A stretch of 64,000 nucleotides of DNA from an uncultured Methanosarcinales archaeon (GTDB lineage Archaea > Nanobdellota > Nanobdellia > Woesearchaeales > JAGVZT01), in the NCBI GenBank assembly GCA_964354685.1, contig CAYHAM010000005.1:9942-73941 (forward strand), given 5' to 3'. The number at the start of each line of letters is the position of its first letter. The stretch's first letter is position 1. Positions 1-58,575 of the stretch are shown in pieces. The position numbers and the translations under genes are program-made. Under the pieces are notes generated by a model that ran no database searches, was not told where the DNA came from, and saw only the letters and a program-made list of their open reading frames with translations.

Positions 1-378
1 GCAGGTAATGCCAGCTCTGTTAGTGGTGATTGGTGGATTTATGATAATACTGATTTGAATATAACAGATTCTGGTGATTGGAATCTGACCGTAAAATGTA
101 TTGATTCAGGGTCTAGCTCTGATACAGAGTCTGTTAATTGGAGTGTTGCTTGGGGTGTTCTTGTGCCTTATATTATTACTGGAAGTAGGGGTGCACAGAA
201 CAATAGCGGGTTTACATTTACTGCTGGTGTTAATTGCACTGTTGGTGAGTGTGGCAACATAAATGCTACTCTTGACCCATATAAATTGAGAGATATGATT
301 GAGGAAGAGATTAGGAAGTTGGATGCGACACAAACCATAACATCAAACAAAAAAGAGAGGGTGATAAAGAATGGATAA
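1..378 (+). CDS. C-terminal end of a secreted/surface protein that begins upstream of the window (partial)
   Basis: Frame 1 is open from nt 1 to the stop at 378. It carries N-x-S/T sequons like the surface proteins that follow. Confidence 0.35.
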   Translation, partial: AGNASSVSGDWWIYDNTDLNITDSGDWNLTVKCIDSGSSSDTESVNWSVAWGVLVPYIITGSRGAQNNSGFTFTAGVNCTVGECGNINATLDPYKLRDMIEEEIRKLDATQTITSNKKERVIKNG

Positions 379-569
379 TTTGTTAAGAAAAAAAGAAAGT
401 AGGTTCCATAACCTGGAATTGCCTAGGCATAGGAACCATTTGGCCTCACAGTTGAATGATAATAGAGATGAGGTGATATATAAACCTTTCCACGAATGTA
501 TCGGAAATATTTTGGAAAAGCAGGGTAAAGAGATATTAAGCATTTGTCCAGATATAATATCTGGACAAA

Positions 570-667
570 GCCGTGGTCGCATAATCTGGTATTGCGAATG
601 GTTCAGGACCATTTGGCCTCACAGCCATGCGGGTTCGAACTTCTTTGCGGAAGTCCCGTCCACGGCG
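570..667 (+). tRNA. tRNA-Leu (anticodon CAG), type II with a long variable arm and a ~14-nt insertion in or after the T-loop
   Basis: Acceptor GCCGTGG/CCACGGC with discriminator G. Anticodon stem AATGG/CCATT, loop TTCAGGA. Variable-arm hairpin TGGC-CTCACA-GCCA. T-stem GCGGG/CCCGT, T-loop TTCGAAC followed by extra TTCTTTGCGGAAGT. Confidence 0.7.
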
Positions 668-801
668 TCTAAACCTTTTTCTGGGTTTATTTTTGACACT
701 TTAAAGTCTAATAATTTTTTAATTGATAAAAATAATGAGTTTATATTCACAGATTGTGGATTTCTAAACAATAAAAAAATCAAAAACGAGGTGATTTTGA
801 G

Positions 802-2325
802 ATGAATAAGAAAAGAATAGTTCTAGGATTGGTGGCTTTGAGCCTAGTTTTTTTGTTGGCAGTTGGTGCAAGTGCTAGTTTTTTTGATGCGCTTGCTGAT
901 TTGTTTGGGATAAGATATGCGGCACCAGAGATTGTGAATATCTCTGTTTATCCACAGAAGGTGATGCCTGATAGTGTTATGCTGACAACTGTTGAGGTAG
1001 AAGATAAGTATGGTATTAGTGAGGCAATAGCAATTATACCTAATGAAAAGGGTTCTGACACAATAAAAATGCATTTGATTAGCGGCAGCTCTAAAAAGGG
1101 TGTTTATCAGTGCAGCTGGATTGAGCATGATGCAAAGAATGAGAAGTGGTATAATACAACAGTTATTGTTACAAATGTTAAAGGAATGAGCAGTGAAGCA
1201 AAGATTGAGTGGCAGGATCCAACAAAGAGTCATCCTGCAAGTGAGGTTACTGCTGGAACTTTTGATTCTGGGAATTTCAGTTTTCCTGACAGAGTTGGCA
1301 TAGGGACAACAAATCCTATAGCTAAGCTAGAGGTCAAAGATTCTGGAACCGGTGGATTATCCTTGAATGTGACTGGTGATTTGTATGTTAATGATACTGC
1401 TAACGGCGTAGGTATTGGAACAACAAATCCTGCTGGAGCACTTCAAGTTCTTGGTGATGAAGTTAGAATTGGAACCCCAACATGTTCGGATGCCTATTCA
1501 GCTGGTGACCTTTGTATGAATGGTTCTATTGAATCAGAAGGAGCAATTTTTGTGGGTGATATGTGGCACGTTGGTTCAAAATTAAGGATGGGTATGGATA
1601 CTATGTCAAGTAATCAAACTATTGTAGGCATCGCCACTAATGATGCTGGTGCAACCAATAGATATTACATAAAAATGTGGTCAGACGTTGATGGGACACT
1701 AGATGCAGAGTTTAGATTTGCAACTAATGGTACTGCCTATGCAGACGGCACGTGGCAGACAGGTGGAGCAGACCTAGCAGAAATATTTTATTTCCAGGAT
1801 ATCTCAGTTGAACAAGGTGATCTGGTTGCTTTTGTCGGAGAAGAAATCCTAGGTAAAAGTGGCGGCAAACCTTATGATTCGTCAATTGCTGGAGTAATCT
1901 CCACCAACCCAGGATTTTTGGGCGGAGTCAAAGAAGAAGAAGAAGAAAATCCTCATTTTAAACCTGTGGCTCTTATTGGTCGCGCACCGGTTAAAGTGAA
2001 TTTGGAAAATGGTCCAATTGAGGTTGGTGACCCACTGACATCTTCTTCTCAACCTGGAGTTGCAATGAAGGCAACCAAGCCTGGAATCATCATTGGAAAA
2101 GCATTGGAAAGCTTTGATGGGGAATGTAATGATTCAATTGTTGTTAAGCAGGAAGGAAAGGAATACAAGGTTTGTAAGATAATGACTTTTGTCAATGTTG
2201 GATATTGGGAGCCTGAAAACAATGATGATAGCAGTAAAGATATCAGTGAACTTGAGAATGAAGTTATGAAACTAAGGTATGAGGTTGCAATGTTGAGGAA
2301 AGAGTTGGCTGAAGTACAAAAGTAA
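802..2325 (+). CDS. Secreted protein with tail-fibre-like VGIGTTNP repeats and a C-terminal coiled coil
   Basis: N-terminal signal peptide (hydrophobic stretch, then ASAS). Two GIGTTNP..L.V repeats. C-terminal heptad region ELENEVMKLRYEVAMLRKELAEV. Confidence 0.5.
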   Translation: MNKKRIVLGLVALSLVFLLAVGASASFFDALADLFGIRYAAPEIVNISVYPQKVMPDSVMLTTVEVEDKYGISEAIAIIPNEKGSDTIKMHLISGSSKKGVYQCSWIEHDAKNEKWYNTTVIVTNVKGMSSEAKIEWQDPTKSHPASEVTAGTFDSGNFSFPDRVGIGTTNPIAKLEVKDSGTGGLSLNVTGDLYVNDTANGVGIGTTNPAGALQVLGDEVRIGTPTCSDAYSAGDLCMNGSIESEGAIFVGDMWHVGSKLRMGMDTMSSNQTIVGIATNDAGATNRYYIKMWSDVDGTLDAEFRFATNGTAYADGTWQTGGADLAEIFYFQDISVEQGDLVAFVGEEILGKSGGKPYDSSIAGVISTNPGFLGGVKEEEEENPHFKPVALIGRAPVKVNLENGPIEVGDPLTSSSQPGVAMKATKPGIIIGKALESFDGECNDSIVVKQEGKEYKVCKIMTFVNVGYWEPENNDDSSKDISELENEVMKLRYEVAMLRKELAEVQK

Positions 2326-2356
2326 AGGAGGTTTATAGTGGAAAAGTAATAACTGA

Positions 2357-4120
2357 ATGACCAAAACAAAGCGTGCATTAATTTTTGTATTTTTGTTTTT
2401 GCTAGTGTTAGTTCTTCCTAACCTAGCCAATGCTGCTTTGAATTGTAGTGTCACTAATGAAACTTGTAATTATGCTAATGTTTTCCATATGTCTAATCTA
2501 AGTAATGCCCATGCTGAGCAGAGCAATGAGTCTGATTACAACTGGAGTGTTTGTTGTTATGATGACGAGGGTGTTGCAACCTTAGGAACAGGTTGTACCG
2601 AGTATTCTTATACAATACTACATTTGTCTAATTCAACCAATGCGCATGTTGAGCAGAGCAATGAGTCTGATTATGTATATAATGTTTGTTTGAATACAAC
2701 TCATGATGATATTTCATGTGTTTATGCCTCAAGTTGCAGTGGTTATGATACTTGTGTTGCTTCTATTTCTAATCACAAAGATGCTCATATTGGGGATTGC
2801 GTAACAGATCCTTACTCAATCTTGATTTGTTGTAATTTGCAGAGCAAGGGGGTTATATCAACTACTGTGGGCACACAACCATTTTACACTACTTCAAGTA
2901 ATCCTCAGACTTATTTGAATGAGTCTTGTTTGCAGAATATGAAAAAGGGTAATTCCTGCAATGTTACATGGAATGTTGTTCCAACTGGATTAATAGGGAG
3001 TATTTGGCAGTTCTTTACAATATTTGAATCAACAAATTATTCATCTTATGTTAGCCAGCAACACACATCAAAGGGTAATATCACTATTTCTGGTAATACA
3101 GCACCAAGTATCTCTACTCCAACTATTAATCCTGATCCTGCTTATACAGATAATGATTTATTGTGTTATGCTAATGCAACCGATGATTTTAACACAACCT
3201 TGACAATAGAGTATTGGTGGTATAATAGCAGCATTTTGTTCGCTTCTGGAAATTATACTGGCGCTAGCAATGGTTCTAACACTTTGGTAAACACTCTTGA
3301 TTCAAGCTATACTGTTAAAAATGAGACTTGGAACTGTACTGTTAGGGCTTATGATGGAACTGATTATTCTAATTATGCTAGTGCAACAAGGACTATTAGC
3401 AACTCATTGCCTGAACAAGTTGTTTTGGATTATCCTGAAGATAATGATACCACATTTACAAACAGAACTCCAAGGTATAATTGGACTAATGCAACTGATT
3501 TAGATGGTGATTCTATTAGTTATCATATTGAGGTTAGCAAGACTGAAAACTTTTCTGATGAGACTGTTAATGAGACAAGTATAACCAACAATTATTATGA
3601 CCAGCCAACAGAGCTTGATTTTGCAACCTATTGGTGGAGGGTTAGGGCTAATGACTCGGATGGTTATGGTGAATTCAGTGATGTTTGGAACTTTACATTA
3701 GTTACAAGCCCAACTATAACATTGGTTACTGATGTTGTAAATTTCACCAATATGGAGGTTGGAGAGTCAAATGATACCTCTGATAATAACCCAATACCCT
3801 TCAAGATACAGAATGATGGCAATATAGCAGCCAATGTTAGTGTTAATGCAACTGCTTTGTGGACAAGTAGTTATGCTCCTTTAAACACTTCATATTATCA
3901 GTTCAAAGCAAATTACAGTGATGAGGCTAACTCTTTTGATTATGCTAATTCAGCAACCACTTGGCAGAATATGTCTGATGTGAACAAGGATGTTGTGGCT
4001 ATTTTGAATCATACTGATGCAAATGATGTTGTTAATATTGATATTGGTGTATTGGTTGCATTGGATGAGCCTCCTAACTGGAAAACATCAAATGTTTTGT
4101 TTACAGCTGTGGAAACATGA
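2357..4120 (+). CDS. Cys-rich secreted glycoprotein with an internal NAHxEQSNESDY repeat and an FN3-like segment (YWWRVRA)
   Basis: Signal peptide, many CC and C-x-C motifs, dense N-x-S/T sequons. Its stop overlaps the next gene (ATGA). Confidence 0.45.
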   Translation: MTKTKRALIFVFLFLLVLVLPNLANAALNCSVTNETCNYANVFHMSNLSNAHAEQSNESDYNWSVCCYDDEGVATLGTGCTEYSYTILHLSNSTNAHVEQSNESDYVYNVCLNTTHDDISCVYASSCSGYDTCVASISNHKDAHIGDCVTDPYSILICCNLQSKGVISTTVGTQPFYTTSSNPQTYLNESCLQNMKKGNSCNVTWNVVPTGLIGSIWQFFTIFESTNYSSYVSQQHTSKGNITISGNTAPSISTPTINPDPAYTDNDLLCYANATDDFNTTLTIEYWWYNSSILFASGNYTGASNGSNTLVNTLDSSYTVKNETWNCTVRAYDGTDYSNYASATRTISNSLPEQVVLDYPEDNDTTFTNRTPRYNWTNATDLDGDSISYHIEVSKTENFSDETVNETSITNNYYDQPTELDFATYWWRVRANDSDGYGEFSDVWNFTLVTSPTITLVTDVVNFTNMEVGESNDTSDNNPIPFKIQNDGNIAANVSVNATALWTSSYAPLNTSYYQFKANYSDEANSFDYANSATTWQNMSDVNKDVVAILNHTDANDVVNIDIGVLVALDEPPNWKTSNVLFTAVET

Positions 4121-5316
4121 AAATAAAAACAATATTGTGGATGATTGTAGCATTGGTTTTGGTTAGTCAAAGCCTTGCGCTTGGAGTTGCACCAGGCCAT
4201 GAGGATATTGTTTTTGCTCCAAATGGCGAGCATAGGGTAAAACTAAAGATAATCAACAATGACAACAATGATCTTAGAGTGGTTTTGTATGCAGAAGGCG
4301 AGCTTGCAGAGTTTGTCACTTTTGATGATTTGACTATGGATATTAGAGCAGATGAAAAAGAGAGCTTTACTTATTATACATTGAAATTGCCTGAGAAGTT
4401 TGATAAGCAAGGCTTGCATAGTGCTAACATTGTTGTTAGACAGATTCCTCTAGAGAAAGAGGGTGAGGGTATTAGCATGGCTGCTAGTGTTGCTATTATA
4501 CATAAGCTGAATGTTATGGTGCCTTATTCTGGGAAGTATGTTGAGATAACATTGTTTAGTCCAAACTTTGAGGTTGGCAAGCAGAGCAATTTTGCAGTTG
4601 AGGTTAGGAATTTGGGAACAGATGATATTTTGCAGGCTCAGGCGATAGTCGATATTTACGGGCCTTTGAATAACAAGCTTGATACTGTTTATTCTGATAT
4701 TCAGCCAATAGCAGCAAAGGACAAGAAGATATTGGTTGCAAAGTGGATTCCTGCATTAGGTGCTGGGAGTTATTATGCGGTTGCAACTGTTGTTTATGAT
4801 GAGTTGAATGTTAAGGATGAGGCTCAGTTTAATATTGGGACAATGATTATAGATGTTGTTGATGTTAGTGTTACTGACTTTAAGCTTGGAGGCATAGCAA
4901 AGTTTGATATTTTGTTTAGCAGCAACTGGAACATACCTGTTGAGGGGGTTTATGCTGAGACAACTATAACTGATGAGTCTGGCAAGGTTTATACAAAGTT
5001 TAAGACTGCTGATGTTGATATGCCTGCGTTTGGTAAGGAGCGTGTTGATGCCTATTGGGATACTGCAACAGTTGGGCCAGGCAAGTACAAGATGAATGTG
5101 TTGTTAAATTACTTAGATAAAACTTCTGAGAAGCTGTTTGAAATAATCGTTTCAATGGACAAGATCCAGGCTAGTCCTGTTGGTAAGCTTATAACACCAA
5201 TCCAAGAAGATGGTGAAGAGTTAAAGATAACCTCTTTGGTTTATATACTTGCATTCCTTGTTGTTTCGCTGATAATATTCAATGTATATATGTATTTTAA
5301 AAAGTTTAGAAAGTAG
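4117..5316 (+). CDS. Surface protein with signal peptide and C-terminal TM anchor; paralog of 7704..8855
   Basis: Shares the NLGTxxIxxAxAIxDxY core region with the 7704 ORF. C-terminal hydrophobic helix plus KKFRK tail. Confidence 0.5.
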   Translation: MKIKTILWMIVALVLVSQSLALGVAPGHEDIVFAPNGEHRVKLKIINNDNNDLRVVLYAEGELAEFVTFDDLTMDIRADEKESFTYYTLKLPEKFDKQGLHSANIVVRQIPLEKEGEGISMAASVAIIHKLNVMVPYSGKYVEITLFSPNFEVGKQSNFAVEVRNLGTDDILQAQAIVDIYGPLNNKLDTVYSDIQPIAAKDKKILVAKWIPALGAGSYYAVATVVYDELNVKDEAQFNIGTMIIDVVDVSVTDFKLGGIAKFDILFSSNWNIPVEGVYAETTITDESGKVYTKFKTADVDMPAFGKERVDAYWDTATVGPGKYKMNVLLNYLDKTSEKLFEIIVSMDKIQASPVGKLITPIQEDGEELKITSLVYILAFLVVSLIIFNVYMYFKKFRK

Positions 5317-13906: not shown

Positions 13907-16900
13907 GTGAAAATAAGAGAAGAGGGATAGTGAAAATATTGTTGTTGGTTTTTGTACTAATATTAAGTATAGTTTTTTTGAATAGTGTAAAAGCCACTGA
14001 TCCATCTTTTGATCCATCGCCTCCTTCAATGTTTAATCTAACACAGGATGTAAATTTTTATTATGATTTGAACGCAACTGATCCTGACAATAACACACCA
14101 TTCGTATTTTCTGATGATGCTGCATCTAGGGGTTGGTACGTATTTTTGATGAATAATGTAACGGGTGAGATAAACTTTACTCCATCAAATGATGATGTTG
14201 GATCAAACCAAGTTACTCTAATTGTTACTGATAGTAATTTAGAGCAGGATTCTAAGCTTGTTAATTTCAATGTGTCGAATGTGAATGACCCTCCGAATAT
14301 AACAGGATATACACCAACAAATTTAACACCAACAATCTATGAGAATGATTCTATTGGGTTTACATTTAATTACAATGCAACTGATCCTGATCTTCCTTAT
14401 GGTGATTCATTAACAAACACGTGGTATATGGATGGGGTTAACCAATCAAACAACCAGTCTTGGACTTACACACCTGACTTTTGTGAACCAAGTAATAGAA
14501 ACATAACCCTGATTGTCTGGGATTTGTATAATGCTACTGACAGTGTTGAGTGGAATGTGACTGTTATCAATGTTAACAGGCCTGTTGAATTTAACTCAAG
14601 CAGTCCAATACAGGATATAACCTGGCCAGAGGACACAGACCTAATAAACAACATATCATTAAACAATTATTTCTATGATCTTGATTATTCTGAGTGTAAT
14701 GATTCTCTGAATTTCAGTGTTGTTGGCAATCAGAGTATTGTGGTTAATATAAGCAGTATAACACCTCACAATGTTAGCTTCCACACACTACCTGACTGGT
14801 TTGGGGTGGAGGTAATTAATTTCACTGCTTGGGATGGTTATGACAATGCAACTAGCAACAATGTTGTGCTCAATGTCACTGATGTGGAAGACGCGCCTGT
14901 TATTGAGAATATCTCTGACCAGGTTGCTTATGCTTATGCTCCCTTTAGTCTACAAGTGAATGCAAGTGACCCTGATAATGATACTTTGACTTATTATGAT
15001 AATACAACTATGTTTGATATCAATCCATCAACTGGTTTGATTTCATTTACACCCAACCAATCTAATGTGGGAAATTATTCTATTATGATTAATGTTACTG
15101 ATGATGCAAACAATGTTTTCACAACCTTTGATTTGACAATTTACAACAATTCTGTACCAGGCATAGATTTAATCACAGATCAAGTTGTTGAGGAGAGCAG
15201 TTTGTTCCAGATAACTGTTAATGGCTCTGATTCTGATGCAGACAATCTCACTTTCCAGACAAATTATTCTGCAATGATAAATCCTGTTTGGAGCAATGCC
15301 ACTTCTGCAACATTTAGCTTTACTCCGTACCAGTATAATGTTGGCAATCATTCAATTAAGGTCACTGTTTTGGATGAGCATGGTGCAAGCAATTTCACGA
15401 TATTTAATTTGAGTGTTACTGATATCAACAACCCTCCTGTTCTAGATTCAATACCAACTCCACAGATTGTGAAGATAAACAAGAGTTTCACAATGCAGTT
15501 AAATGCAAGTGATGCTGATGGTGATGAGTTGAACTTTACCCATAATGCTTCTCCTGTTGATTTTCCAAACTTTTATATGAATAGCAGTGGGTTTATCAAC
15601 TTTACAGCAAATGCATCTGATGAGGGCAATCATAGTTTGAATATTACTGTCTGGGATGTAACTGCTGTGCCAAAGCAGGATTCCCAGATTGTTTTATATA
15701 TAGTTACATATAACAGACCACCAATTATAGATGCAGTGGGTATGCAGAATGGAACAGAGGATGATTTATTTACCTTACAGATAAATGCAACTGATCCTGA
15801 CAATGATCCAATAGTATTTTATACAAACTCAACAATATTTAACATAAGCACTGGTGGTTTGATAAACTTCACTCCTAATGGAAGCCATGTTGGTTTGCAT
15901 AATATCTCTGTTAATGTTAGTGATGGGGATGGCGGGTGGGGGAATATTACATTTTTACTGAATATATCTGATAAGAATGATGCTCCTTACTTCGATCCTC
16001 CTCTAGAAAATTTGAGTATATGGAACAACATATATGAAGATTCGTTGATTGAGATATATGTTAATGCAACTGATGAGGAGAATGATGATTTGACGTTTAC
16101 AAGAACATTCTTAAATGGGTCTACTATATTCAACATAACAAAGATAGGAACAAATCAGGCTCTGATAAATTTCACTCCTACACAGGCTGATGTGGGGTAT
16201 AATTACTCTGTTAATATAACTGTTAGTGATGGTATAAACACAACATGGGTTGTTATAAACTTCAGTGTTTATAATGTGAATGATGCACCAAATATAACTA
16301 GAGTGTATCCTTATGGAACACCATTGTCGAATTATACTGTTTTTGGTTGGGCCAATCATAGCTATTTCCCAAATGGAAGTTGGATAAATGCTTCTGAGAA
16401 TATGAGTATTTTCTTTAATCATAGTAGTACTGATCCTGATAATGCAAGCTTGATTTATATATGGTATTTTAATGGTAATATTGTTAATAACCAATCATAT
16501 TGGAATTATTCTTTGAATTTTAGCTCAAATGGCACTCATAATGTAACTCTAGTTGTTAGTGATGGTAATTTGAGTGATAGCATGTATTGGAACTTGAGTG
16601 TTTCAAATGTGAATAGGCCACCTGTGTTTGGCAAAAAGATTCATGATGATTATGCTGACTTTTCAGGAGGGAGTTTTTATAGAACCAATGTAACTTCAGA
16701 TGGAAGAATAGAGTTAAGCGAGAACTCAAGCTATTATCCAAATGGTTTGTATAATTCCTCTGTTATTAATCTTGATATGGATGATGGGTTTAATTATAGC
16801 ACGATTAGCTGGTCAGCATATGTGCCTAATGGTACAAGTGCAGATATAAAGACAAGAACATCCACAGATGGTTTATCTTGGAGTAGTTGGAGCAGTGCCA

Positions 16901-26963: not shown

Positions 26964-27076
26964 AAAATGAAAAAGCCTCCGGAGGGAGTTGAACCCTCGA
27001 CCTGCGGATCACTTGCATAAGGGCTACAAGTTTCGGCTTTAGAAATCCGCCGCAATAGCCACTATGCTACGGAGGC
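26964..27076 (-). tRNA. tRNA-Arg (anticodon TCT) with a canonical-position intron (~30 nt)
   Basis: Reverse complement has GCCTCCG/CGGAGGC acceptor, GCGGA-TTTCTA-(intron)-A-TCCGC, and T-arm GAGGG-TTCAACT-CCCTC. Confidence 0.7.
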
Positions 27077-27990: not shown

Positions 27991-29553
27991 TCATTTATAA
28001 TCTGCAAGGCTGATTTGGCCTTTTCTTTTTCTTGGCTTTACCTTTATCTTTGACTCAGCATAGTCTTGTCCAACTTGTTGCTTGATGTCAATTGCAATGC
28101 GCTTTCCCAATAGTTGAGTTAGGGTCATAATATTTGCGCTTTTAACATCTGCTATTGTTCTTACCTTGTTGTTGTATAGCCTTCTTGCTCTTACCCTACC
28201 TATGTTTCTGAGCTTTAATAAAGGAAGCAACTCTTCTTTTGCACCATGCTTTATCCTTAATCTTGTTTTGATTAGCTCTTTTAATAATGGTTTTAGTTGT
28301 AGGATTCTTGCAATCTCGTATGAAGAGTAGAGTAACCAGTCTGCTATCTCAAGCTTTACTCTAAGTTCGCCAGGTCTGATATCATATTTCTCTAATAGAT
28401 ATTCCTCTTCTTTTTCCTCAATCCAATCATAGAACATTAAAGCTGTTTTTATTGAGTTTAGAAAGTCTTCATACTCTGGGTCGTACAATGAAGGTTCATT
28501 TGACAAAATGATGTTGTCATATTCAACAATCTTTTCTTGGGTTTGCTCCCATTCTTTTGTTTTTACTCTGAGCAATGGCCTCATCTCAAGTGTTTGGGAT
28601 ATTATTTGTAGGAAGGAGAATTCTCTAACAAGCTTTGTTTTTGCTCTTTTTTGGCAAACAACTATTTGGTGTGCTGTTAGTGGATCAAGGTAGAGTTGTG
28701 CCACTCTTTTTCCAAGGTTTGTTGCATTTATGCATTCTTTGTCAAGTTGTTCTGCTGATACAAACTCTTTTCTAGAGGTTTTTATGAATTCCCATTCTTC
28801 TAGTTGTCCTAGTGTTTTTGTTATTATCTTCCTTAGCTTGGGCATGTCCTCAAACTGCATTGCCCAGAATGTTTTTGAGAAGAAGTCAAAGATTTGTTGC
28901 TTTGTTTTTACAAAATCCGTTGCTATTAAAGATAAGAGGTATGTTCTCAGAACTGGTTCTACTGCTAATTTCGAGTAGATTTCTTCTGGTTCTCCAAGGA
29001 TGTATTTTTCATAGATGTTGTTTTTTTCTGCACTTGAGGTTGCTATTGAAATTGCTTCGCCATATTTGTCAAAGCTTGGTCTGCCTGCTCTGCCTGCTTG
29101 TTGATGGTATTCCAAAACAGGTATCCAGTCTAAGCCATGATGTCCATATCTTTTTAGGTCTCGGATTATTGTTCTAAATGCTGGCAAATCTACGCCAGCT
29201 GCAAGTGTTGGTGTGCAGCATATTATTTTTATTGTGCCTTTTCTGAATTCATCTTCTATTAGGCTGCGCTGCTTTTGAACTAAGCCAGCATGGTGGAATG
29301 CAATTCCTTTTTTAGCAACCTCTGCAAGCCTTTCACATTGTTTTGTTGGTTTTGAGAGTGCTTTTAGGAGTTGGGTGGATAGCTGTTCATATTTTGGATC
29401 TTTTGTTTTGATCTTTTTTGCTATGTCTTCTGCACATTTTTCTGCACTGCGCTTTGTGTTGACAAATATTAATGCTTGTTTATTTTTTTTGGTTGTGTCT
29501 AATGCGAGGTCAATTACAGGGTTTGCAGTTATTTGCTCTATTTTCGTTTTCAT
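27991..29553 (-). CDS. Hel308/Ski2-like helicase, C-terminal two-thirds only (RecA2, winged helix, ratchet, HhH); RecA1 not encoded here
   Basis: Motif VI QQAGRAGRP. Helicase-C region IICCTPTLAAGVDLP. Begins at the RecA2 boundary. Confidence 0.65.
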   Translation of the reverse strand: MKTKIEQITANPVIDLALDTTKKNKQALIFVNTKRSAEKCAEDIAKKIKTKDPKYEQLSTQLLKALSKPTKQCERLAEVAKKGIAFHHAGLVQKQRSLIEDEFRKGTIKIICCTPTLAAGVDLPAFRTIIRDLKRYGHHGLDWIPVLEYHQQAGRAGRPSFDKYGEAISIATSSAEKNNIYEKYILGEPEEIYSKLAVEPVLRTYLLSLIATDFVKTKQQIFDFFSKTFWAMQFEDMPKLRKIITKTLGQLEEWEFIKTSRKEFVSAEQLDKECINATNLGKRVAQLYLDPLTAHQIVVCQKRAKTKLVREFSFLQIISQTLEMRPLLRVKTKEWEQTQEKIVEYDNIILSNEPSLYDPEYEDFLNSIKTALMFYDWIEEKEEEYLLEKYDIRPGELRVKLEIADWLLYSSYEIARILQLKPLLKELIKTRLRIKHGAKEELLPLLKLRNIGRVRARRLYNNKVRTIADVKSANIMTLTQLLGKRIAIDIKQQVGQDYAESKIKVKPRKRKGQISLADYK

Positions 29554-29555
29554 TT

Positions 29556-30107
29556 TTACAGCATACTCAACACCCTCTCAGCAAAGTGTGTGAAGAGGAA
29601 TAGGTTTATAAGCATGTTTAATGTGAAAGAAATAATACTATTTATTGGATTAAAGCCTAAAGCTAATATGTAAGTGGTATGAATAACTAAGTTAAAGACA
29701 AGTGTTAATATTATGCCTGCTATTGATACATTCAAACCCAAAAGAAGAAAAGAGAGCAAACAGATTATGAAGTAGGCAGCTATTTGAATAAACATTGGGA
29801 TGCATAGGCGTCCATTGAGAATTGAGCCAATAATTAACATGGTTGTTGCTGCAAGCATTGCAAACAATGGAGAAAAGGCAAAGCAAAATATTATTGTTAT
29901 GAATGTTATGAGCTCAAATCCCAATGATAGTTGAATGAACCTTTTCCAAAATATTGAGATTATTCCAATTGAGATTAGTAACAATGTTAGGATTATTGCT
30001 TTAAATCTTTGGAAGAGTATTAAAATAATGAGAATTGATACAAGTAGAATAACATACTTCTTGATGTAATTTTTAGCATCCTGTGATAATACGTATTTGT
30101 TTATCAT
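29556..30107 (-). CDS. Hydrophobic membrane protein (183 aa)
   Basis: About 6 TM helices. Confidence 0.35.
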   Translation of the reverse strand: MINKYVLSQDAKNYIKKYVILLVSILIILILFQRFKAIILTLLLISIGIISIFWKRFIQLSLGFELITFITIIFCFAFSPLFAMLAATTMLIIGSILNGRLCIPMFIQIAAYFIICLLSFLLLGLNVSIAGIILTLVFNLVIHTTYILALGFNPINSIISFTLNMLINLFLFTHFAERVLSML

Positions 30108-30329: not shown

Positions 30330-30413
30330 CGCCCCGGGCCAGGTTTGAACTGGCGACCTTGCGGTTTCTAGGCAAGCTAACAGCCGCACGCTCCACCACT
30401 AAGCTACCGGGGC
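30330..30413 (-). tRNA. tRNA-Asn (anticodon GTT) with a 12-nt intron at 37/38
   Basis: GCCCCGG/CCGGGGC acceptor. TGCGG-CTGTTA(intron)A-CCGCA. T-arm GCCAG-TTCAAAC-CTGGC. Confidence 0.65.
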
Positions 30414-48417: not shown

Positions 48418-48846
48418 CTATCCAATTCTTGGGAAGAGATATACTGTCATTATCAGCCCCACCAATAGGCCTATCAAAAACCCTGCTGCAAACTCTCTTA
48501 TGCCACAACCAATGTGCTCTTTTGGGCAAGCCTTTTCTCCAGATGAATGATGTATTTCCTTGATCCTTTTTCTTACCACTTTCAGAGCATCTTTTCTGTT
48601 CTTGGTCTCATGCAACATCAAACTTAGTTCTTTATCTTTGATAATATCTCCAACCCAGTTTGCAAAGTCGTTCCTATCTTCTGTAACATGGTGATTGTAG
48701 CTTTCATCACTCATTATCTCTAGTGCATCTGCCAATTCAAACAGGTTGTTTATCTCAATCTCTGTTTTGTGCAGCTTGAAGGTGTGCTCATTTGGCACAT
48801 CTCTTAGTAGGGGTACAGCATCGTGGCCATGTAGTTTTTCAGTCAT
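48418..48846 (-). CDS. Paralog 1 of a three-member family (conserved L..LA..LE...D..YxHHV...RNDFAxW domain) with C-terminal TM
   Basis: Aligns with 48851 and 49417 ORFs across about 65 aa. Confidence 0.45.
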   Translation of the reverse strand: MTEKLHGHDAVPLLRDVPNEHTFKLHKTEIEINNLFELADALEIMSDESYNHHVTEDRNDFANWVGDIIKDKELSLMLHETKNRKDALKVVRKRIKEIHHSSGEKACPKEHIGCGIREFAAGFLIGLLVGLIMTVYLFPRIG

Positions 48847-48850
48847 GTCC

Positions 48851-49420
48851 TTACCTCTTTTTTCTTTTTTTTATTTTTTTCTTCTTGATTTTTCTAACGA
48901 CTCTCTTTCCTATTTTTCTCTTTAGTCGTTTGCTTGGTTTTTTCTTAATGATCCTTCTTTCTTTTCTAATAGATTTTCTTTTTCTGATTGTTTTTTTAGG
49001 TTTTTTTACCCTTATTTTTTTCTTGGGCTTTTTCATTCCAACCTTTCTCTTTTTAACCTTTTTCTTTGGTCTCTTCTTAACCTTCTTTCTTTTCTTTGCC
49101 AATGTTTTGTATTTTGAAACAATTTCTCTTGATTCTTCAACCTTTTCTTTTATCTTCCTCACCAATGTTTCCTTTGTTTTTATCCTTGATATCTCTCTTG
49201 CAAAATCATTATCACCCACAACATCACGTACCCATGCGCTGAAATCATTTTTGTATTTGTTTACATGGTATCTAAACACATCGTCGTTTACTTCCTCCAA
49301 GGTATTGGCCAATGTGTTCAAGCTCCTTAGATCTTGATTTGTGCACAACCAAAAGCTTTGCTTAGTTGGAACAACGTTGAGCAAATTCTTTGCCCTAGAG
49401 AGATTTATCTTCTTACTCAT
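48851..49420 (-). CDS. Paralog 2, same conserved domain plus a ~100-aa poly-lysine/arginine tail
   Basis: RYHVNKYKNDFSAWV core. KKRKKVKKRPKKK tail. Confidence 0.45.
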   Translation of the reverse strand: MSKKINLSRAKNLLNVVPTKQSFWLCTNQDLRSLNTLANTLEEVNDDVFRYHVNKYKNDFSAWVRDVVGDNDFAREISRIKTKETLVRKIKEKVEESREIVSKYKTLAKKRKKVKKRPKKKVKKRKVGMKKPKKKIRVKKPKKTIRKRKSIRKERRIIKKKPSKRLKRKIGKRVVRKIKKKKIKKRKKR

Positions 49421-49794
49421 TTTATAAACCTCTTAATCATATGCTTCAAAATTTCAATTTGATGCCTTTCCTTTGAGTTAAGTTTTTGAAGCTTTTCAGC
49501 AAGCTCAACCTCTTTGAAGGTCTCCTTTGTCCAGGTTGCGAAATCATTCCTGAATTCATTTACATGGTGGTGGAAGATTTCATCAGTCATCTCGTCCATT
49601 GCTTCTACAAGTTCAAATAAATTTTTTAATGGCCTGCCATCAAGGAGTATAAAGTAGTGCTCTGGTTTTGCGTTTTTTAGTTTAACTCTTGTATTTTTCT
49701 CAGGAGATTTTTCTTTTACTCTCTTTTCAACTTCCTTAACTATTCTCTTCTTTACTTTAGCTTTTTTTATTTTTTCCTCTTTTTTCTTTGTCAT
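49417..49794 (-). CDS. Paralog 3, Lys-rich N-terminus plus the conserved domain
   Basis: HHHVNEFRNDFATW core. 4-nt overlap with paralog 2. Confidence 0.45.
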   Translation of the reverse strand: MTKKKEEKIKKAKVKKRIVKEVEKRVKEKSPEKNTRVKLKNAKPEHYFILLDGRPLKNLFELVEAMDEMTDEIFHHHVNEFRNDFATWTKETFKEVELAEKLQKLNSKERHQIEILKHMIKRFIK

Positions 49795-55687: not shown

Positions 55688-55882
55688 TTGGGTGGTGTTA
55701 AGATGGATAGGGAGCAACCTGTTGATCCTTATAAGGAGATTATGGAGAATATTGACTTGCTTAGTCCTGTTAAGAGATGTCCAAAGTGTAATGCCTTGAC
55801 TTTGCAATATGATGAGAAGAGTGGCAGAATATATTGTGAGGATTGTGGCTTTGAGAGATTCTTGCCAAGAGTGAAAAAATGA
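55688..55882 (+). CDS. Small zinc-ribbon protein (64 aa)
   Basis: CPKC-x14-CEDC. Overlaps the start of the first EamA gene. Confidence 0.4.
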   Translation: MGGVKMDREQPVDPYKEIMENIDLLSPVKRCPKCNALTLQYDEKSGRIYCEDCGFERFLPRVKK

Positions 55883-56769
55883 GTTGGTTAATTTTTGCTT
55901 TGTTGGCTGCTTTGTTTTTTTCTATTGGTTATATCCTTGACAAAATCCTGCTTGATAAACATTTTAAGCATCCACTTACATTGCTCGTTTTCAAAACCAT
56001 TATCTGGCTGAGCATATGGTTAGTTTTGCCTTTTACTGGATTTAGTATCCCTAGCAAAGAGTTGTTGTTCTTTATTATTGTGATTAGCTTGATTGATACA
56101 CTAGCATTTTTACCTTTTTTAAAGGCTATGTCGTTGGAGGAGGCATCAAGGATTGCACCTTTGCACGAGCTTCGGGCAGTTGTTGCCTTTGTGTTGGCTT
56201 TTTTGTTTCTAGGGGAGAGATTGAGTTCTAATCAGTTGATTGCGTTTGTTCTGATTCTTATTGGTGGATTTATTATCTCAGTTAAGGATGTTAAGGGTAT
56301 TTTCAAGATTAGAAGGGCATTTTGGTTGATGTGCTTGGTTATTGTAATGCGGGGGACCAACATAATTCTTCTTAAATATCTTTTTACTAATGCAGAGTAT
56401 TGGTCTGCCATTGCTCTCCTCATGTTGTTTGATTTTTTCATAGCCATTTGTTTTTTGGTTATTAAGAGCATAAGGTCTGAATTTTTAAGGACGTTTAGAT
56501 CTGGTAAGAGTATTTGGTTGTTGATAATTGCAAATGGTTTGATGTACATAGGTGGTATTCTCGCGAATAATTACGCGCTCAAGAGTGGACCTGCATCAAT
56601 CATTTCTGTTATAGGTGGGGTTAGAACCTTGTTTGTTTTTTTGATTGCAATATTGATTTCGAGGTATCTACCTAAAGTTTTAAAAGAGGAGCTTAGTTGG
56701 AATGTTTTGTTAGTGAAGATCATCGCTATTGGAATGATATTTGTTGGATTGTATTACTTGTATATTTGA
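55879..56769 (+). CDS. EamA/DMT-family transporter (paralog 1 of 3)
   Basis: 10 TM helices. Duplicated EamA-domain pattern. Confidence 0.6.
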   Translation: MSWLIFALLAALFFSIGYILDKILLDKHFKHPLTLLVFKTIIWLSIWLVLPFTGFSIPSKELLFFIIVISLIDTLAFLPFLKAMSLEEASRIAPLHELRAVVAFVLAFLFLGERLSSNQLIAFVLILIGGFIISVKDVKGIFKIRRAFWLMCLVIVMRGTNIILLKYLFTNAEYWSAIALLMLFDFFIAICFLVIKSIRSEFLRTFRSGKSIWLLIIANGLMYIGGILANNYALKSGPASIISVIGGVRTLFVFLIAILISRYLPKVLKEELSWNVLLVKIIAIGMIFVGLYYLYI

Positions 56770-56772
56770 GGA

Positions 56773-57669
56773 ATGAAAATGGATTGGTTGATATTTGCTT
56801 TGCTGGCACCTTTTTTGTGGAGCTTTACGAATATATTGGACAGAATTTTGACTTCAAGATATGTAAATCCAATGCATTATATGATAATCGGTGGTTTTAC
56901 ATGGTTGGCTAATTTGGTGTTTTTCCCTTGGTCAAATCTTAAGATTATTAGCCTCACTTTTGTTTTGCTTGTGCTTCTTGTTGGGTTGCTGAGAATATCC
57001 ACTTTTTTGTTTTATCTCAAGGCAATGCAGATAGAAGAGGCATCTATAGTGGCTCCTTTAGGTAATCTGAGTACTTTGTTTATTTTGATTATGTCTGCTG
57101 TTTTTTTGAAAGAGATCTTAACTAAAAATCAATTAATTGCATTTTTCTTGATTTTGATTGGTGCATTTATACTTAGTGTTAAGAAGGCAAAGGGTCTGTT
57201 TAAGTTGAGAAAGGCTTTGTGGTTTATATTGATAAACACTTCTCTGTGGGCGGTTTCTTATGTGTTGTTGAAATTTGCCTACAAATATGTGACATTGTGG
57301 GATGCTCTTGTGCTGATAGCTATTGGAGAGGCACTTGGTTGCTTTCTTTTGTTGTTAAATAAAAAACAAAGAGACAGCTTTGTAAAGAATGTAAAAAGAT
57401 ACAAAAGAAATGTGTGGTTGCTAATAGCGGTAAGTAGTTTTTTTGCTATCTTGGGAGGATTGGCTTCATGTGCTGCAATTTTGCTTGGTTCAGTTTCACT
57501 AGTTTCAGTTGTTGGTGGGTTCCAAGGATTATTTGTTCTTATCATGGCATTGTTGCTCTCAAAATATTTCCCTAAAATATTGAAGGAAGAGTTGGATAGA
57601 AAAGTATTACTAACCAAGTTTGTTGCAATTGCTTTGATGATCATAGGATTATATTTTTTGAATTTATAG
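56773..57669 (+). CDS. EamA/DMT-family transporter (paralog 2 of 3)
   Basis: Conserved C-terminus PKILKEEL..LL.K..AI..M..GLY.L. Confidence 0.6.
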   Translation: MKMDWLIFALLAPFLWSFTNILDRILTSRYVNPMHYMIIGGFTWLANLVFFPWSNLKIISLTFVLLVLLVGLLRISTFLFYLKAMQIEEASIVAPLGNLSTLFILIMSAVFLKEILTKNQLIAFFLILIGAFILSVKKAKGLFKLRKALWFILINTSLWAVSYVLLKFAYKYVTLWDALVLIAIGEALGCFLLLLNKKQRDSFVKNVKRYKRNVWLLIAVSSFFAILGGLASCAAILLGSVSLVSVVGGFQGLFVLIMALLLSKYFPKILKEELDRKVLLTKFVAIALMIIGLYFLNL

Positions 57670-57678
57670 GAGATAAAA

Positions 57679-58575
57679 ATGGAATGGGTATTTTTTGCAG
57701 TGTTGGCAGCGTTGCTGTGGGCTGTTGAGAGTGTTGCTGATAAGATAATAATAAGCAAATTCATTAAGGATCCAAGTGTTATGACAATTATTTGGGGTTT
57801 TTTGCAGCTTCTTGTCTTCTTTGTGTTGCTGTTTCATAATTTGGATGTTAGTAATGGTCTTATAATTTTATTAGCAATAATTAGTGGTATGATCGGCATG
57901 CTTGCAGCTGTACCTTATTTCAAAGCTTTGAACCTTGAAGAGGCCTCTCGTATTATTCCAATCATATATTTTTCCCCATTAATTGTTTTGATTTTATCAT
58001 TTATTTTCTTGGGTGAGAGGTTGGGTTTTATTCAGATTATTGCATTTTTTTTGATTCTTATTGGTGGATTTTTGCTGTCATTGAGGAATATTAAAGATAT
58101 GTTTACACTAAAGCGAGCATTTTGGCTAATGGTGTTTGTGGCTTTTTTGTCTGCAGTTTGGCAGATATTAATGAAGCATGTGTATTCAAATATCACTTTT
58201 TTAGATGGATTTTTTTGGTTTAAGATAGGGGGATTTTTTGGGGGCATTATATTGTTATTGTTGAAGAAAAACAGGGTGTCTTTTATTCAGAACTTACAAA
58301 CAATCAAAAGCAAGGTTTTTATTTTTGTTATGTTAGGTGTAGGGTTAGTATCTCTCGCAGATAGTTTAAGTTATGGTTATGCTATTAAGCTTGGTCCTGT
58401 TTCATTAGTTTCTGTTTTGGATGGGATAGCACCTTTGTTTATTTTAATAATAACTATCCTATTATCAAAATACTTACCAAAAATACTTAAAGAGGAGATA
58501 GATAAGAAAATTTTATTAACTAAAGCGTTTGCCATTGCTCTAATGATTGTGGGGTTGTGGTTTTTGTACATATGA
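57679..58575 (+). CDS. EamA/DMT-family transporter (paralog 3 of 3)
   Basis: Same as the two preceding paralogs. Confidence 0.6.
   Translation: MEWVFFAVLAALLWAVESVADKIIISKFIKDPSVMTIIWGFLQLLVFFVLLFHNLDVSNGLIILLAIISGMIGMLAAVPYFKALNLEEASRIIPIIYFSPLIVLILSFIFLGERLGFIQIIAFFLILIGGFLLSLRNIKDMFTLKRAFWLMVFVAFLSAVWQILMKHVYSNITFLDGFFWFKIGGFFGGIILLLLKKNRVSFIQNLQTIKSKVFIFVMLGVGLVSLADSLSYGYAIKLGPVSLVSVLDGIAPLFILIITILLSKYLPKILKEEIDKKILLTKAFAIALMIVGLWFLYI

Follow-up and report, generated by a model that had tools for sequence, protein, structure and literature searches.

Introduction

Thermoproteales are the classic case of non-canonical introns in archaeal transfer RNA (tRNA) genes. The broad-specificity splicing endonucleases of archaea are known to act on such introns at many positions of the tRNA, in the strict form (hBHBh') or the relaxed forms (HBh' and hBH) of the bulge-helix-bulge motif (PMC3239211, PMC5829648), and the endonucleases of DPANN archaea possess an insert that is associated with more disrupted tRNA genes (PMC5829648). 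The closest described system to that reported here is the pre-tRNA-Cys(GCA) of ARMAN-2 (Ca. Micrarchaeum), in which there is a 13-nucleotide (nt) intron that is located between positions 59 and 60 (59/60) with a relaxed hBH motif (i.e., bulge-helix-loop, BHL) and that the epsilon2 splicing endonuclease cleaves in vitro (PMC3239211); the same substrate was used again in a later study (PMC5829648). The tRNA sets of DPANN archaea are, furthermore, incompletely predicted, and undetected disrupted tRNA genes are expected there (PMC5829648). Here, we describe a class II tRNA gene, namely one with a long variable arm, that has the anticodon CAG and 14 surplus bases within its T-loop. The gene is located at positions 570-667 (+) of a 64-kb stretch of contig CAYHAM010000005.1, and this whole stretch is called "the window" throughout. 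The gene is considered likely to encode a functional tRNA that is spliced at 59/60.

Like tRNA-Cys of ARMAN-2, the window tRNA has its intron at 59/60 (14 versus 13 nt), a relaxed motif and a DPANN host, and the two share a motif class that retains the helix beside the T-stem as well as the 3' bulge but has its 5' site in a loop. Unlike tRNA-Cys of ARMAN-2, it is a class II tRNA with the anticodon CAG from a Woesearchaeota-like lineage, and its splicing is predicted here from sequence only. Because the ARMAN-2 case is documented, a T-loop hBH intron at 59/60 is of a known kind, to which the window adds an example. In common with other non-canonical archaeal introns, the non-canonical ones described below are short, lie outside 37/38 and have a 3-4-3 or relaxed geometry (a strict motif at one homologous locus, L028, and a D-loop insert in a related Woesearchaeon, L030); unlike the hosts of those other introns, the host of the window is a low-G+C DPANN archaeon.

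Results

A class II tRNA gene with an insert in its T-loop

The letters of 570-667 (+) are divided into GCCGUGG-UC-GCAU-AAUCUGGUA-UUGC-G-AAUGG-UUCAGGA-CCAUU-UGGCCUCACAGCCAU-GCGGG-UUCGAA, the intron CUUCUUUGCGGAAG and the remainder, U-CCCGU-CCACGGC-G (Table 1). The acceptor stem has 7 base pairs (bp; GCCGUGG/CCACGGC) and the T-stem 5 bp (GCGGG/CCCGU), the anticodon arm AAUGG-UUCAGGA-CCAUU is composed of a 5-bp stem and a 7-nt loop, and the variable region of 15 nt has a 4-bp stem (UGGC-CUCACA-GCCA). Once 640-653 is removed, the conserved tertiary bases are all there: U8, A14, G18 and G19, U33, U54 U55 C56, R57 (as G57), A58 and G53-C61. A CCA sequence is not encoded at the 3' end as read. An earlier note on this DNA had described a tRNA with the anticodon CAG and 14 extra bases in or after the T-loop, which is borne out by the sequence read at 570-667. 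The same note had regarded the D-stem as weak; instead, the D-stem (3 bp plus a U13.U22 mismatch) is normal, and U13.U22 recurs in tRNA-Arg of the window as well as in one tRNA from a related archaeon. The discriminator base, G73, was not mentioned in that note and was read in this analysis. Furthermore, the region 330-830 was matched at 100% in two independent Logan assemblies (runs ERR3804373 and ERR3804374), and the insert is therefore no assembly artefact.

Table 1. Features at and around the intron-containing tRNA gene, and the other intron-containing tRNA genes of the window
Feature	Coordinates	Strand	Content	Basis or remark
144-codon open frame spanning the tRNA	371..805	+		Gene-calling artefact
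Degenerate direct copy of tRNA positions 5-55	402..451	+		17-nt exact match, 435-451 = 608-624
Perfect 11-bp hairpin	543..569	+	TTTGTCCAGAT-ATAAT-ATCTGGACAAA; ends exactly at the tRNA 5' end	Folding versus shuffles
5' exon (tRNA positions 1-59)	570..639	+	Acceptor 5' strand, D-arm, anticodon arm, long variable arm, T-stem 5' strand and T-loop UUCGAA	Read directly; ARAGORN after insert removal; stem covariation in five homologues
Anticodon	604..606	+	CAG in the 7-nt loop UUCAGGA (U33, G37)	Sequence and ARAGORN
5' strand of helix H	634..637	+	U54 U55 C56 G57 of the T-loop	Pairs with 648-651; paired in 4/4 intron-bearing homologues
Intron between tRNA positions 59 and 60	640..653	+	14 nt, CUUCUUUGCGGAAG	Top bulge-helix-bulge geometry; homologous introns at the same site
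3' strand of helix H	648..651	+	CGGA of the intron, then the 3-nt bulge A652 G653/U654 with the 3' splice site
3' exon	654..667	+	U60, T-stem 3' strand CCCGU, acceptor 3' strand CCACGGC, G73 at 667
3' trailer	668..696	+	TCTAAACC, then T-runs (TTTTT, TTTATTTTT)	Sequence read
tRNA-Arg(UCU)	26974-27076	-	30-nt intron at 37/38; discriminator U73; U13.U22
tRNA-Asn(GUU)	30330-30413	-	Intron of about 12 nt at 37/38

In default use, the standard tRNA finders miss this gene. ARAGORN found nothing at 570-667 and a single tRNA, elsewhere, in the whole window, and the Rfam tRNA model (RF00005) at its gathering threshold hit two other tRNAs in the window but nothing at 570-667. In the E-value mode of Rfam, a truncated match of 21.8 bits was obtained that covers 570-626 only and does not include the T-arm; a scan of the whole window in this mode gave no hidden tRNAs besides the two already known. 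When 12-16 nt were deleted in silico from the T-loop region, ARAGORN named the gene as tRNA-Leu(CAG). The earlier note had proposed that a better intron-free fold be sought with such tools, and ARAGORN and Rfam gave none: the 83-nt "tRNA-Leu" reported by ARAGORN at an 80% threshold has a mismatched acceptor stem and a mismatched T-arm, and the 21.8-bit alignment of Rfam is without a T-arm, neither of which is better than the spliced fold.

The predicted splice motif

A splicing cut lies two bases inside the bulge, as was checked against the two canonical-position introns of the window. All pairs of cut sites in the 98-nt precursor were scored for three elements, namely a helix H of 4 bp, cuts located two bases within each of the 3-nt bulges, and an exon helix h at the flank, following the 3-4-3 definition of the bulge-helix-bulge motif (PMC3239211). 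The top pair of the scan was 70/84 of the precursor, i.e., between 639 and 640 and between 653 and 654 of the window, with a helix H of 4 bp (U-A, U.G, C-G and G-C) and a helix h of 5 bp. The 3' bulge, AG/U, adjoins the 5-bp T-stem, whereas the 5' splice site, A58 A59/C, is two bases past helix H and within a 10-nt loop; the geometry is hence of the relaxed hBH type rather than the strict 3-4-3 type. Excision of 640-653 leaves an 84-nt product with a canonical T-loop, UUCGAAU. The boundaries given in the earlier note (641-654, leaving UUCGAAC) were one base off from these best-supported ones. When the 14-nt insert was shuffled, a full helix H in the required register appeared in 2.6% of the trials for the window sequence alone; the product of this chance over the four homologous loci, whose independence is incomplete, is 8e-7.

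The earlier note had also taken an ACUUC/GAAGU hairpin within the insert as the bulge-helix-bulge substrate. This hairpin is instead a competing fold: across the homologues its cells are paired in 78%, against 4/4 loci for helix H, and it is unfit as a splice substrate because both splice sites sit within its helix. As a splice motif, the hairpin was therefore rejected for its base-paired splice sites and its lack of conservation.

Homologous loci and covariation

As bait for relatives, the translation of the open reading frame (ORF) at 371-805, which spans the tRNA, was searched exhaustively against 1.84 billion representative proteins. Only two distant "proteins" were matched, and their contigs (L013, with L014, and L015) each have a homologous class II tRNA flanked by two same-strand genes. 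A pattern scan of JGI metagenomes yielded two further loci: L028, an unrelated locus from an organism of 29% G+C, and L023, a tRNA-Ser(GCU) without an intron, which reads TTCAAATCCCG and has TTCAAAT at its T-loop. The 5'-half pattern GCNNARNNNGGNANNGCNNNNGGTTCAGGACC, when searched in 185,579 representative genomes, gave 7 matches, all bacterial, with no class II tRNA and no orthologue among them (in one of them the anticodon loop is the same, but the tRNA-like sequence has a short arm). A 3' pattern scan of viral contigs gave no match, and a search by synteny via the downstream protein led to a closest homologue (L010, 34% identity) with no tRNA nearby.

All four of the window, L013, L015 and L028 have an intron at 59/60, and its length (14, 13, 19 and 20 nt, respectively) varies along with the anticodon (CAG, CAG, GAA and CAA) and the sequence of helix H (UUCG/CGGA, UUCA/UGAA, UUCA/UGAG and UUCG/CGAA). 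Helix H is nonetheless paired in 4/4, with a compensatory change between G57-C and A57-U, and the minimum-energy fold of the L028 T-arm is the strict 3-4-3 hBHBh' motif with a 4-bp inner helix. In an alignment of five sequences, three of which are related so that the counts are support and not proof, 99.1% of the cells in the cloverleaf and helix H are paired and 11 pairs are changed on both sides. None of 500 shuffles reached the observed pairing, and slid controls were 31-46% paired. The hairpin of the ACUUC/GAAGU type is strong in the window and L015 only.

As for the surroundings of the homologues, the protein downstream of the tRNA is 61% identical between the window and L013 over 282 amino acids, and the downstream gene of L015 shows no significant similarity. 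The exons of the window tRNA and of its counterpart at 1241-1341 of L013 are about 66% identical, with all stems compensated, and the DNA of the flanking genes is 78-83% identical. The tRNA retains its shape and not its sequence, and this turnover is unusually fast for a housekeeping tRNA.

The overlapping open reading frame

The ORF used as bait is registered in public collections (NCBI, Logan) as a predicted protein (P0122), as are its two "homologues" (P0123 and P0124). In favor of a 144-residue protein whose resemblance to a tRNA is incidental, the frame stays open for 435 nt at 35% G+C, overlaps both of its neighbors (by 8 and 4 nt) as in coupled genes, is predicted by public gene callers and has two distant "homologues". 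Both of these, however, are the same tRNA locus in other organisms, and no true protein homologue was found among the 1.84 billion representative proteins; nor did a profile search with the three "ORF" translations add anything new. The orthologues carry compensating frameshifts from indels inside the ORF, so that the amino acid sequence is unconserved across most of the tRNA, whereas the RNA pairs are conserved. Also, the 17-nt DNA repeat within this region is translated in two different frames. A protein-coding role of 371-805 therefore has a negligible chance of being real, and the ORF, as judged from these sequence comparisons, is an artefact of gene calling, equally so for the two "homologues".

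Host and neighboring genes

The window encodes archaeal PolB, XPD, a Hel308-type helicase, ribosomal protein S7, endonuclease V and a FlaI-like ATPase, and the closest named homologues of XPD are found in metagenome-assembled genomes of Candidatus Woesearchaeota and Nanoarchaeota. The window is chromosomal DNA of a DPANN archaeon with about 35% G+C. The core of the description in the earlier note, a tRNA with the anticodon CAG and a non-canonical intron at 59/60, is right, and the host is of the DPANN type.

The two other tRNA genes of the window, for Arg and Asn, have introns at the canonical position (Table 1), and a scan and a check by hand gave 3/4 pairs of helix H in each; relaxed motifs are therefore the norm here. 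ARAGORN missed the tRNA-Arg gene and reported tRNA-Asn as "tRNA-???" with a 4-base anticodon. In the related Woesearchaeon (L030; XPD 57% identical), furthermore, a tRNA at 14985-15085 has two inserts, A73, U13.U22 and an anticodon that is apparently CAC. Its first insert is in the D-loop, where 19 bases are left unaligned by Rfam; it was placed at about 17 nt and is flanked by a GUGG/CCAC helix with the same geometry as the splice motif. The second insert is an intron at the anticodon.

Immediately upstream of the tRNA, the hairpin at 543-569 has a folding energy of -17.6 kcal/mol, compared with -5.3 +/- 2.2 for shuffled sequences. A counterpart of another inner sequence, with G.U pairs fitting the + strand only, is present in L013 and L015, and L028 has none. 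This hairpin might act in the leader or in processing, or else as an operator. Downstream, the TCTAAA of the trailer is kept in L013, L015 and L023, and the region 668-696 is, from its T-runs, a probable archaeal transcription stop.

The tRNA lies within a same-strand run of large genes, 1-5316 (+), the products of which look secreted or surface-located (weak Ig-like and CARDB matches). In L013, the orthologue of the downstream gene has a C-terminal Peptidase_S74 (endosialidase chaperone) domain, as in phage tail fibers. No other viral signal was found; a PHROGs search of the neighboring genes gave two weak matches, to which no function is assigned. Elsewhere in the window, the Hel308-type helicase ORF (27991-29553 (-), 520 amino acids) begins with the C-terminal helicase domain and is without the N-terminal ATPase domain, and the ORF directly upstream on the same strand (29556-30107 (-), 183 amino acids) has no Pfam match; the pair may represent a gene that is split, carries a frameshift or has diverged strongly. 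Tandem runs of paralogues were also noticed: three adjacent DUF5752-like ORFs at 48418-49794 (-) and three adjacent ORFs of 296-298 amino acids at 55879-58575 (+).

Discussion

From the geometry of the motif and its conservation in the relatives, we infer that the pre-tRNA of the window is cleaved by an endonuclease and that its exons are ligated. The gene would be transcribed as a 98-nt body including the 14-nt intron, and U54-G57 of the T-loop would pair with CGGA of the intron in a helix stacked on the T-stem. This would place the 3' splice site (AG/U60) in a 3-nt bulge and the 5' site (A58 A59/C) in the 10-nt loop, as in the relaxed hBH form, where both would be cut by the tRNA splicing endonuclease before an RNA ligase joins the exons. 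Post-transcriptional addition of CCA would then complete a tRNA of 84 nt (before CCA), which has the T-loop UUCGAAU and is expected to read CUG.

Several observations weigh against a leucine tRNA that is spliced in this way. In terms of folding energy, the insert hairpin and not the splice fold is the optimum of the whole precursor (-34.5 versus -31.1 kcal/mol), and the same holds for the isolated T-arm of the window (-10.7 versus -4.0). A gene for the splicing endonuclease was not found among the genes of the 64-kb window. The T-stem of L013 has one U x C mismatch, and the mature tRNAs of the window and L013 share about 66-69% identity, less than the 78-83% DNA identity of the flanking genes. 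The discriminator at position 667 is G73, and G73 is also present in L013, L015 and L028; the similarly arranged locus L015 has the anticodon GAA (Phe); and L013 has A37, whereas the window tRNA has G37 beside its CAG anticodon.

The folding energies bear on the possibility that the 14 nt are retained in the mature tRNA as a small additional hairpin that juts out of the T-loop between positions 59 and 60. These two positions take no part in the contact between the T-loop and the D-loop. The minimum-energy fold of the precursor is indeed such a hairpin (ACUUCU/GGAAGU in the window, 8 bp in L015), and the first and last bases of the intron can pair in 3/4 homologues. The hairpin is, however, not conserved: no more than 2-4 A-U pairs form in L013 and L028, where the register is another one, and 78% of the cells are paired compared with 100% for helix H. 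The L028 fold of lowest energy is the strict splice motif itself, and the insert varies freely in length (13-20 nt) and sequence among the loci while the splice geometry is kept. Furthermore, the equivalent insert of ARMAN-2 is excised in vitro (PMC3239211). We therefore regard retention of the insert as distinctly unlikely, and removal of the intron by splicing is preferred.

Another possibility is suggested by the degenerate copy of the tRNA at 402-451, which is unable to form the acceptor or anticodon stem and is hence a non-functional 5' fragment. At the tRNA-Thr locus of Caldiarchaeum subterraneum, a 5' tRNA fragment that lies upstream of an intron-containing tRNA was ascribed to a mobile element's integration (Sugahara et al., PMC3293823), and the window similarly has a 5' fragment upstream of its intron-bearing tRNA. 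The gene might thus be dead, as debris of a mobile-element integration beside the fragment: the fragment is 120 nt upstream with a 17-nt exact repeat, an arrangement as from integration into tRNA genes (PMC3293823), the discriminator is unusual, and the sequence evolves fast. Nonetheless, all stems are intact and compensated across the homologues, which excludes a decaying pseudogene, the universal tertiary bases are retained, and the same position is held while the DNA identity of the flanking genes has fallen to about 80%; also, no integrase or recombinase gene was found near the tRNA. A dead gene is accordingly very improbable, and we keep to a functional tRNA.

The upstream fragments themselves are a recurrent feature of this family. 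Decayed 5' copies were found 100-170 nt upstream of the tRNA also in L013 (about 1090-1130), L015 (about 332-379) and L028 (6806-6838), and at the four loci the fragment matches its own tRNA better than those of the others (27 versus at most 10, 17 versus at most 13, 17 versus at most 13, and 24 versus at most 10). While the repeats of Caldiarchaeum subterraneum flank a 1.8-kb element encoding a recombinase, those of the window type are 100-170 nt apart with no recombinase; moreover, unlike in that organism, the arrangement is conserved across diverged loci and the fragments track their own tRNA. Because each fragment co-varies with its own tRNA, gene conversion or repeated duplication is needed, and the comparison of the four loci implies gene conversion, repeated duplication or remnants of integration.

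The amino acid carried by this tRNA needs to be considered separately. The earlier note had named the gene tRNA-Leu(CAG), of which the CAG anticodon stands; the "Leu" identity is not established by the sequence, which has G73, G1-C72 and G30-C40 and no A73. A73 is the main conserved determinant of leucine in all domains, and G73 is an antideterminant of leucyl-tRNA synthetase (LeuRS) in Haloferax volcanii and E. coli (PMC9976931, PMC13433404). G73 and G30-C40 are, instead, strong identity elements of both bacterial- and archaeal-type seryl-tRNA synthetase (SerRS), with G1-C72 as a further determinant of the methanogen type, and A15-U48 is a leucine identity element in E. coli (PMC9976931). The window tRNA combines a leucine anticodon (of the type NAG or YAA; CAG at 604-606) with a long variable arm, as expected of tRNA-Leu. 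The serine elements (long arm, G73, G30-C40 and G1-C72) are all present in it and in its three homologues, whereas none of the family anticodons (CAG, CAG, GAA and CAA) is a serine anticodon (NGA or GCU).

In the window, CUG accounts for 79 of about 14,000 codons. In XPD, 4/5 CTG codons fall at alignment columns where 92-95 of 95 homologues have L, and in the FlaI-like ATPase 4/5 are matched by L in the closest solved structure, one of them being the L that follows GKT of Walker A. CTG is also not specially avoided, its ratio to CTA (0.31) being in the range of other codon families. Reassignment of CUG was rejected on the codon positions in XPD and the FlaI-like ATPase, and CUG clearly means leucine in the organism of the window. 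With the amino acid deduced from the anticodon and the codon usage, the gene is most likely a CUG-reading leucine tRNA in a lineage whose LeuRS would tolerate G73. The sole look-up of a tRNA-Leu in the lineage, made around the XPD homologue, gave the two-intron tRNA with A73, which is not Leu.

Alternatively, the same gene with the same intron might be charged with serine, in which case a body of the serine type would have acquired Leu or Phe anticodons and the decoding of CUG would be ambiguous or regulated. Candida tRNA-Ser(CAG) and the nematode "nev-tRNAs" are class II tRNAs of which the anticodon is mismatched to the identity elements (PMC2246281, PMC3333845), and the window tRNA resembles them in its long variable arm, the anticodon CAG with G73, and charging by enzymes that disregard the anticodon. 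In support of serine, G73 occurs in all four members of the family, the elements G73, G30-C40 and G1-C72 are listed for SerRS, and G73 blocks LeuRS in H. volcanii (PMC9976931). The tRNA-Ser(GCU) of L023 is 66-77% identical to the family, compared with 65-73% among its members, and has exactly the acceptor stem and variable arm of L013; the anticodon, furthermore, is variable across the family. CUG in the window is, however, found where leucine is invariant in XPD and, close to the Walker A motif, in the ATPase, so that efficient insertion of serine would be harmful. The absence of special CTG avoidance (CTG/CTA 0.31) likewise speaks against serine. In Candida, CUG codons are mostly away from conserved leucine sites; in the window, they are still at such sites. 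Because 3/4 of the family anticodons are leucine anticodons, selection for leucine decoding is suggested, and the window tRNA and L028 also carry A15-U48. No bona fide tRNA-Leu of the lineage was retrieved for comparison, and G73 might just be usual for Leu there. Charging with serine is therefore unlikely, and a leucine tRNA remains the preferred assignment.

There is likewise only a small chance that the window, L013, L015 and L028 all represent serine-type tRNAs with Leu or Phe anticodons, for which the closest relative retrieved is tRNA-Ser(GCU). If that were true, some Woesearchaeota would encode a conserved and fast-evolving tRNA placing serine at CUG, UUG or UUY codons, the supply of which might depend on how efficiently a T-loop intron with a competing hairpin is spliced; it would then be a case of natural ambiguous decoding in an archaeon.

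In conclusion, the window adds to a known class of introns an example from Woesearchaeota with comparative support, in which public gene callers annotate a false 144-residue protein over a tRNA gene that is missed by standard tools. In a survey of DPANN/Nanobdellota, 26-54 tRNAs were found per genome, and tRNAs for all 20 amino acids were found in 96/208 complete genomes (bioRxiv 10.64898/2026.05.13.725050); T-loop introns of the window type may account for part of this gap in the tRNA sets of DPANN. The more interesting points are the combination of a Leu anticodon with a serine-type discriminator, the fast evolution that keeps the shape of the tRNA, and the upstream 5' copy that co-evolves with it. 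These would have a bearing on the rules of tRNA identity in DPANN archaea and also on the proposed link between the integration of mobile elements and the disruption of tRNA genes.

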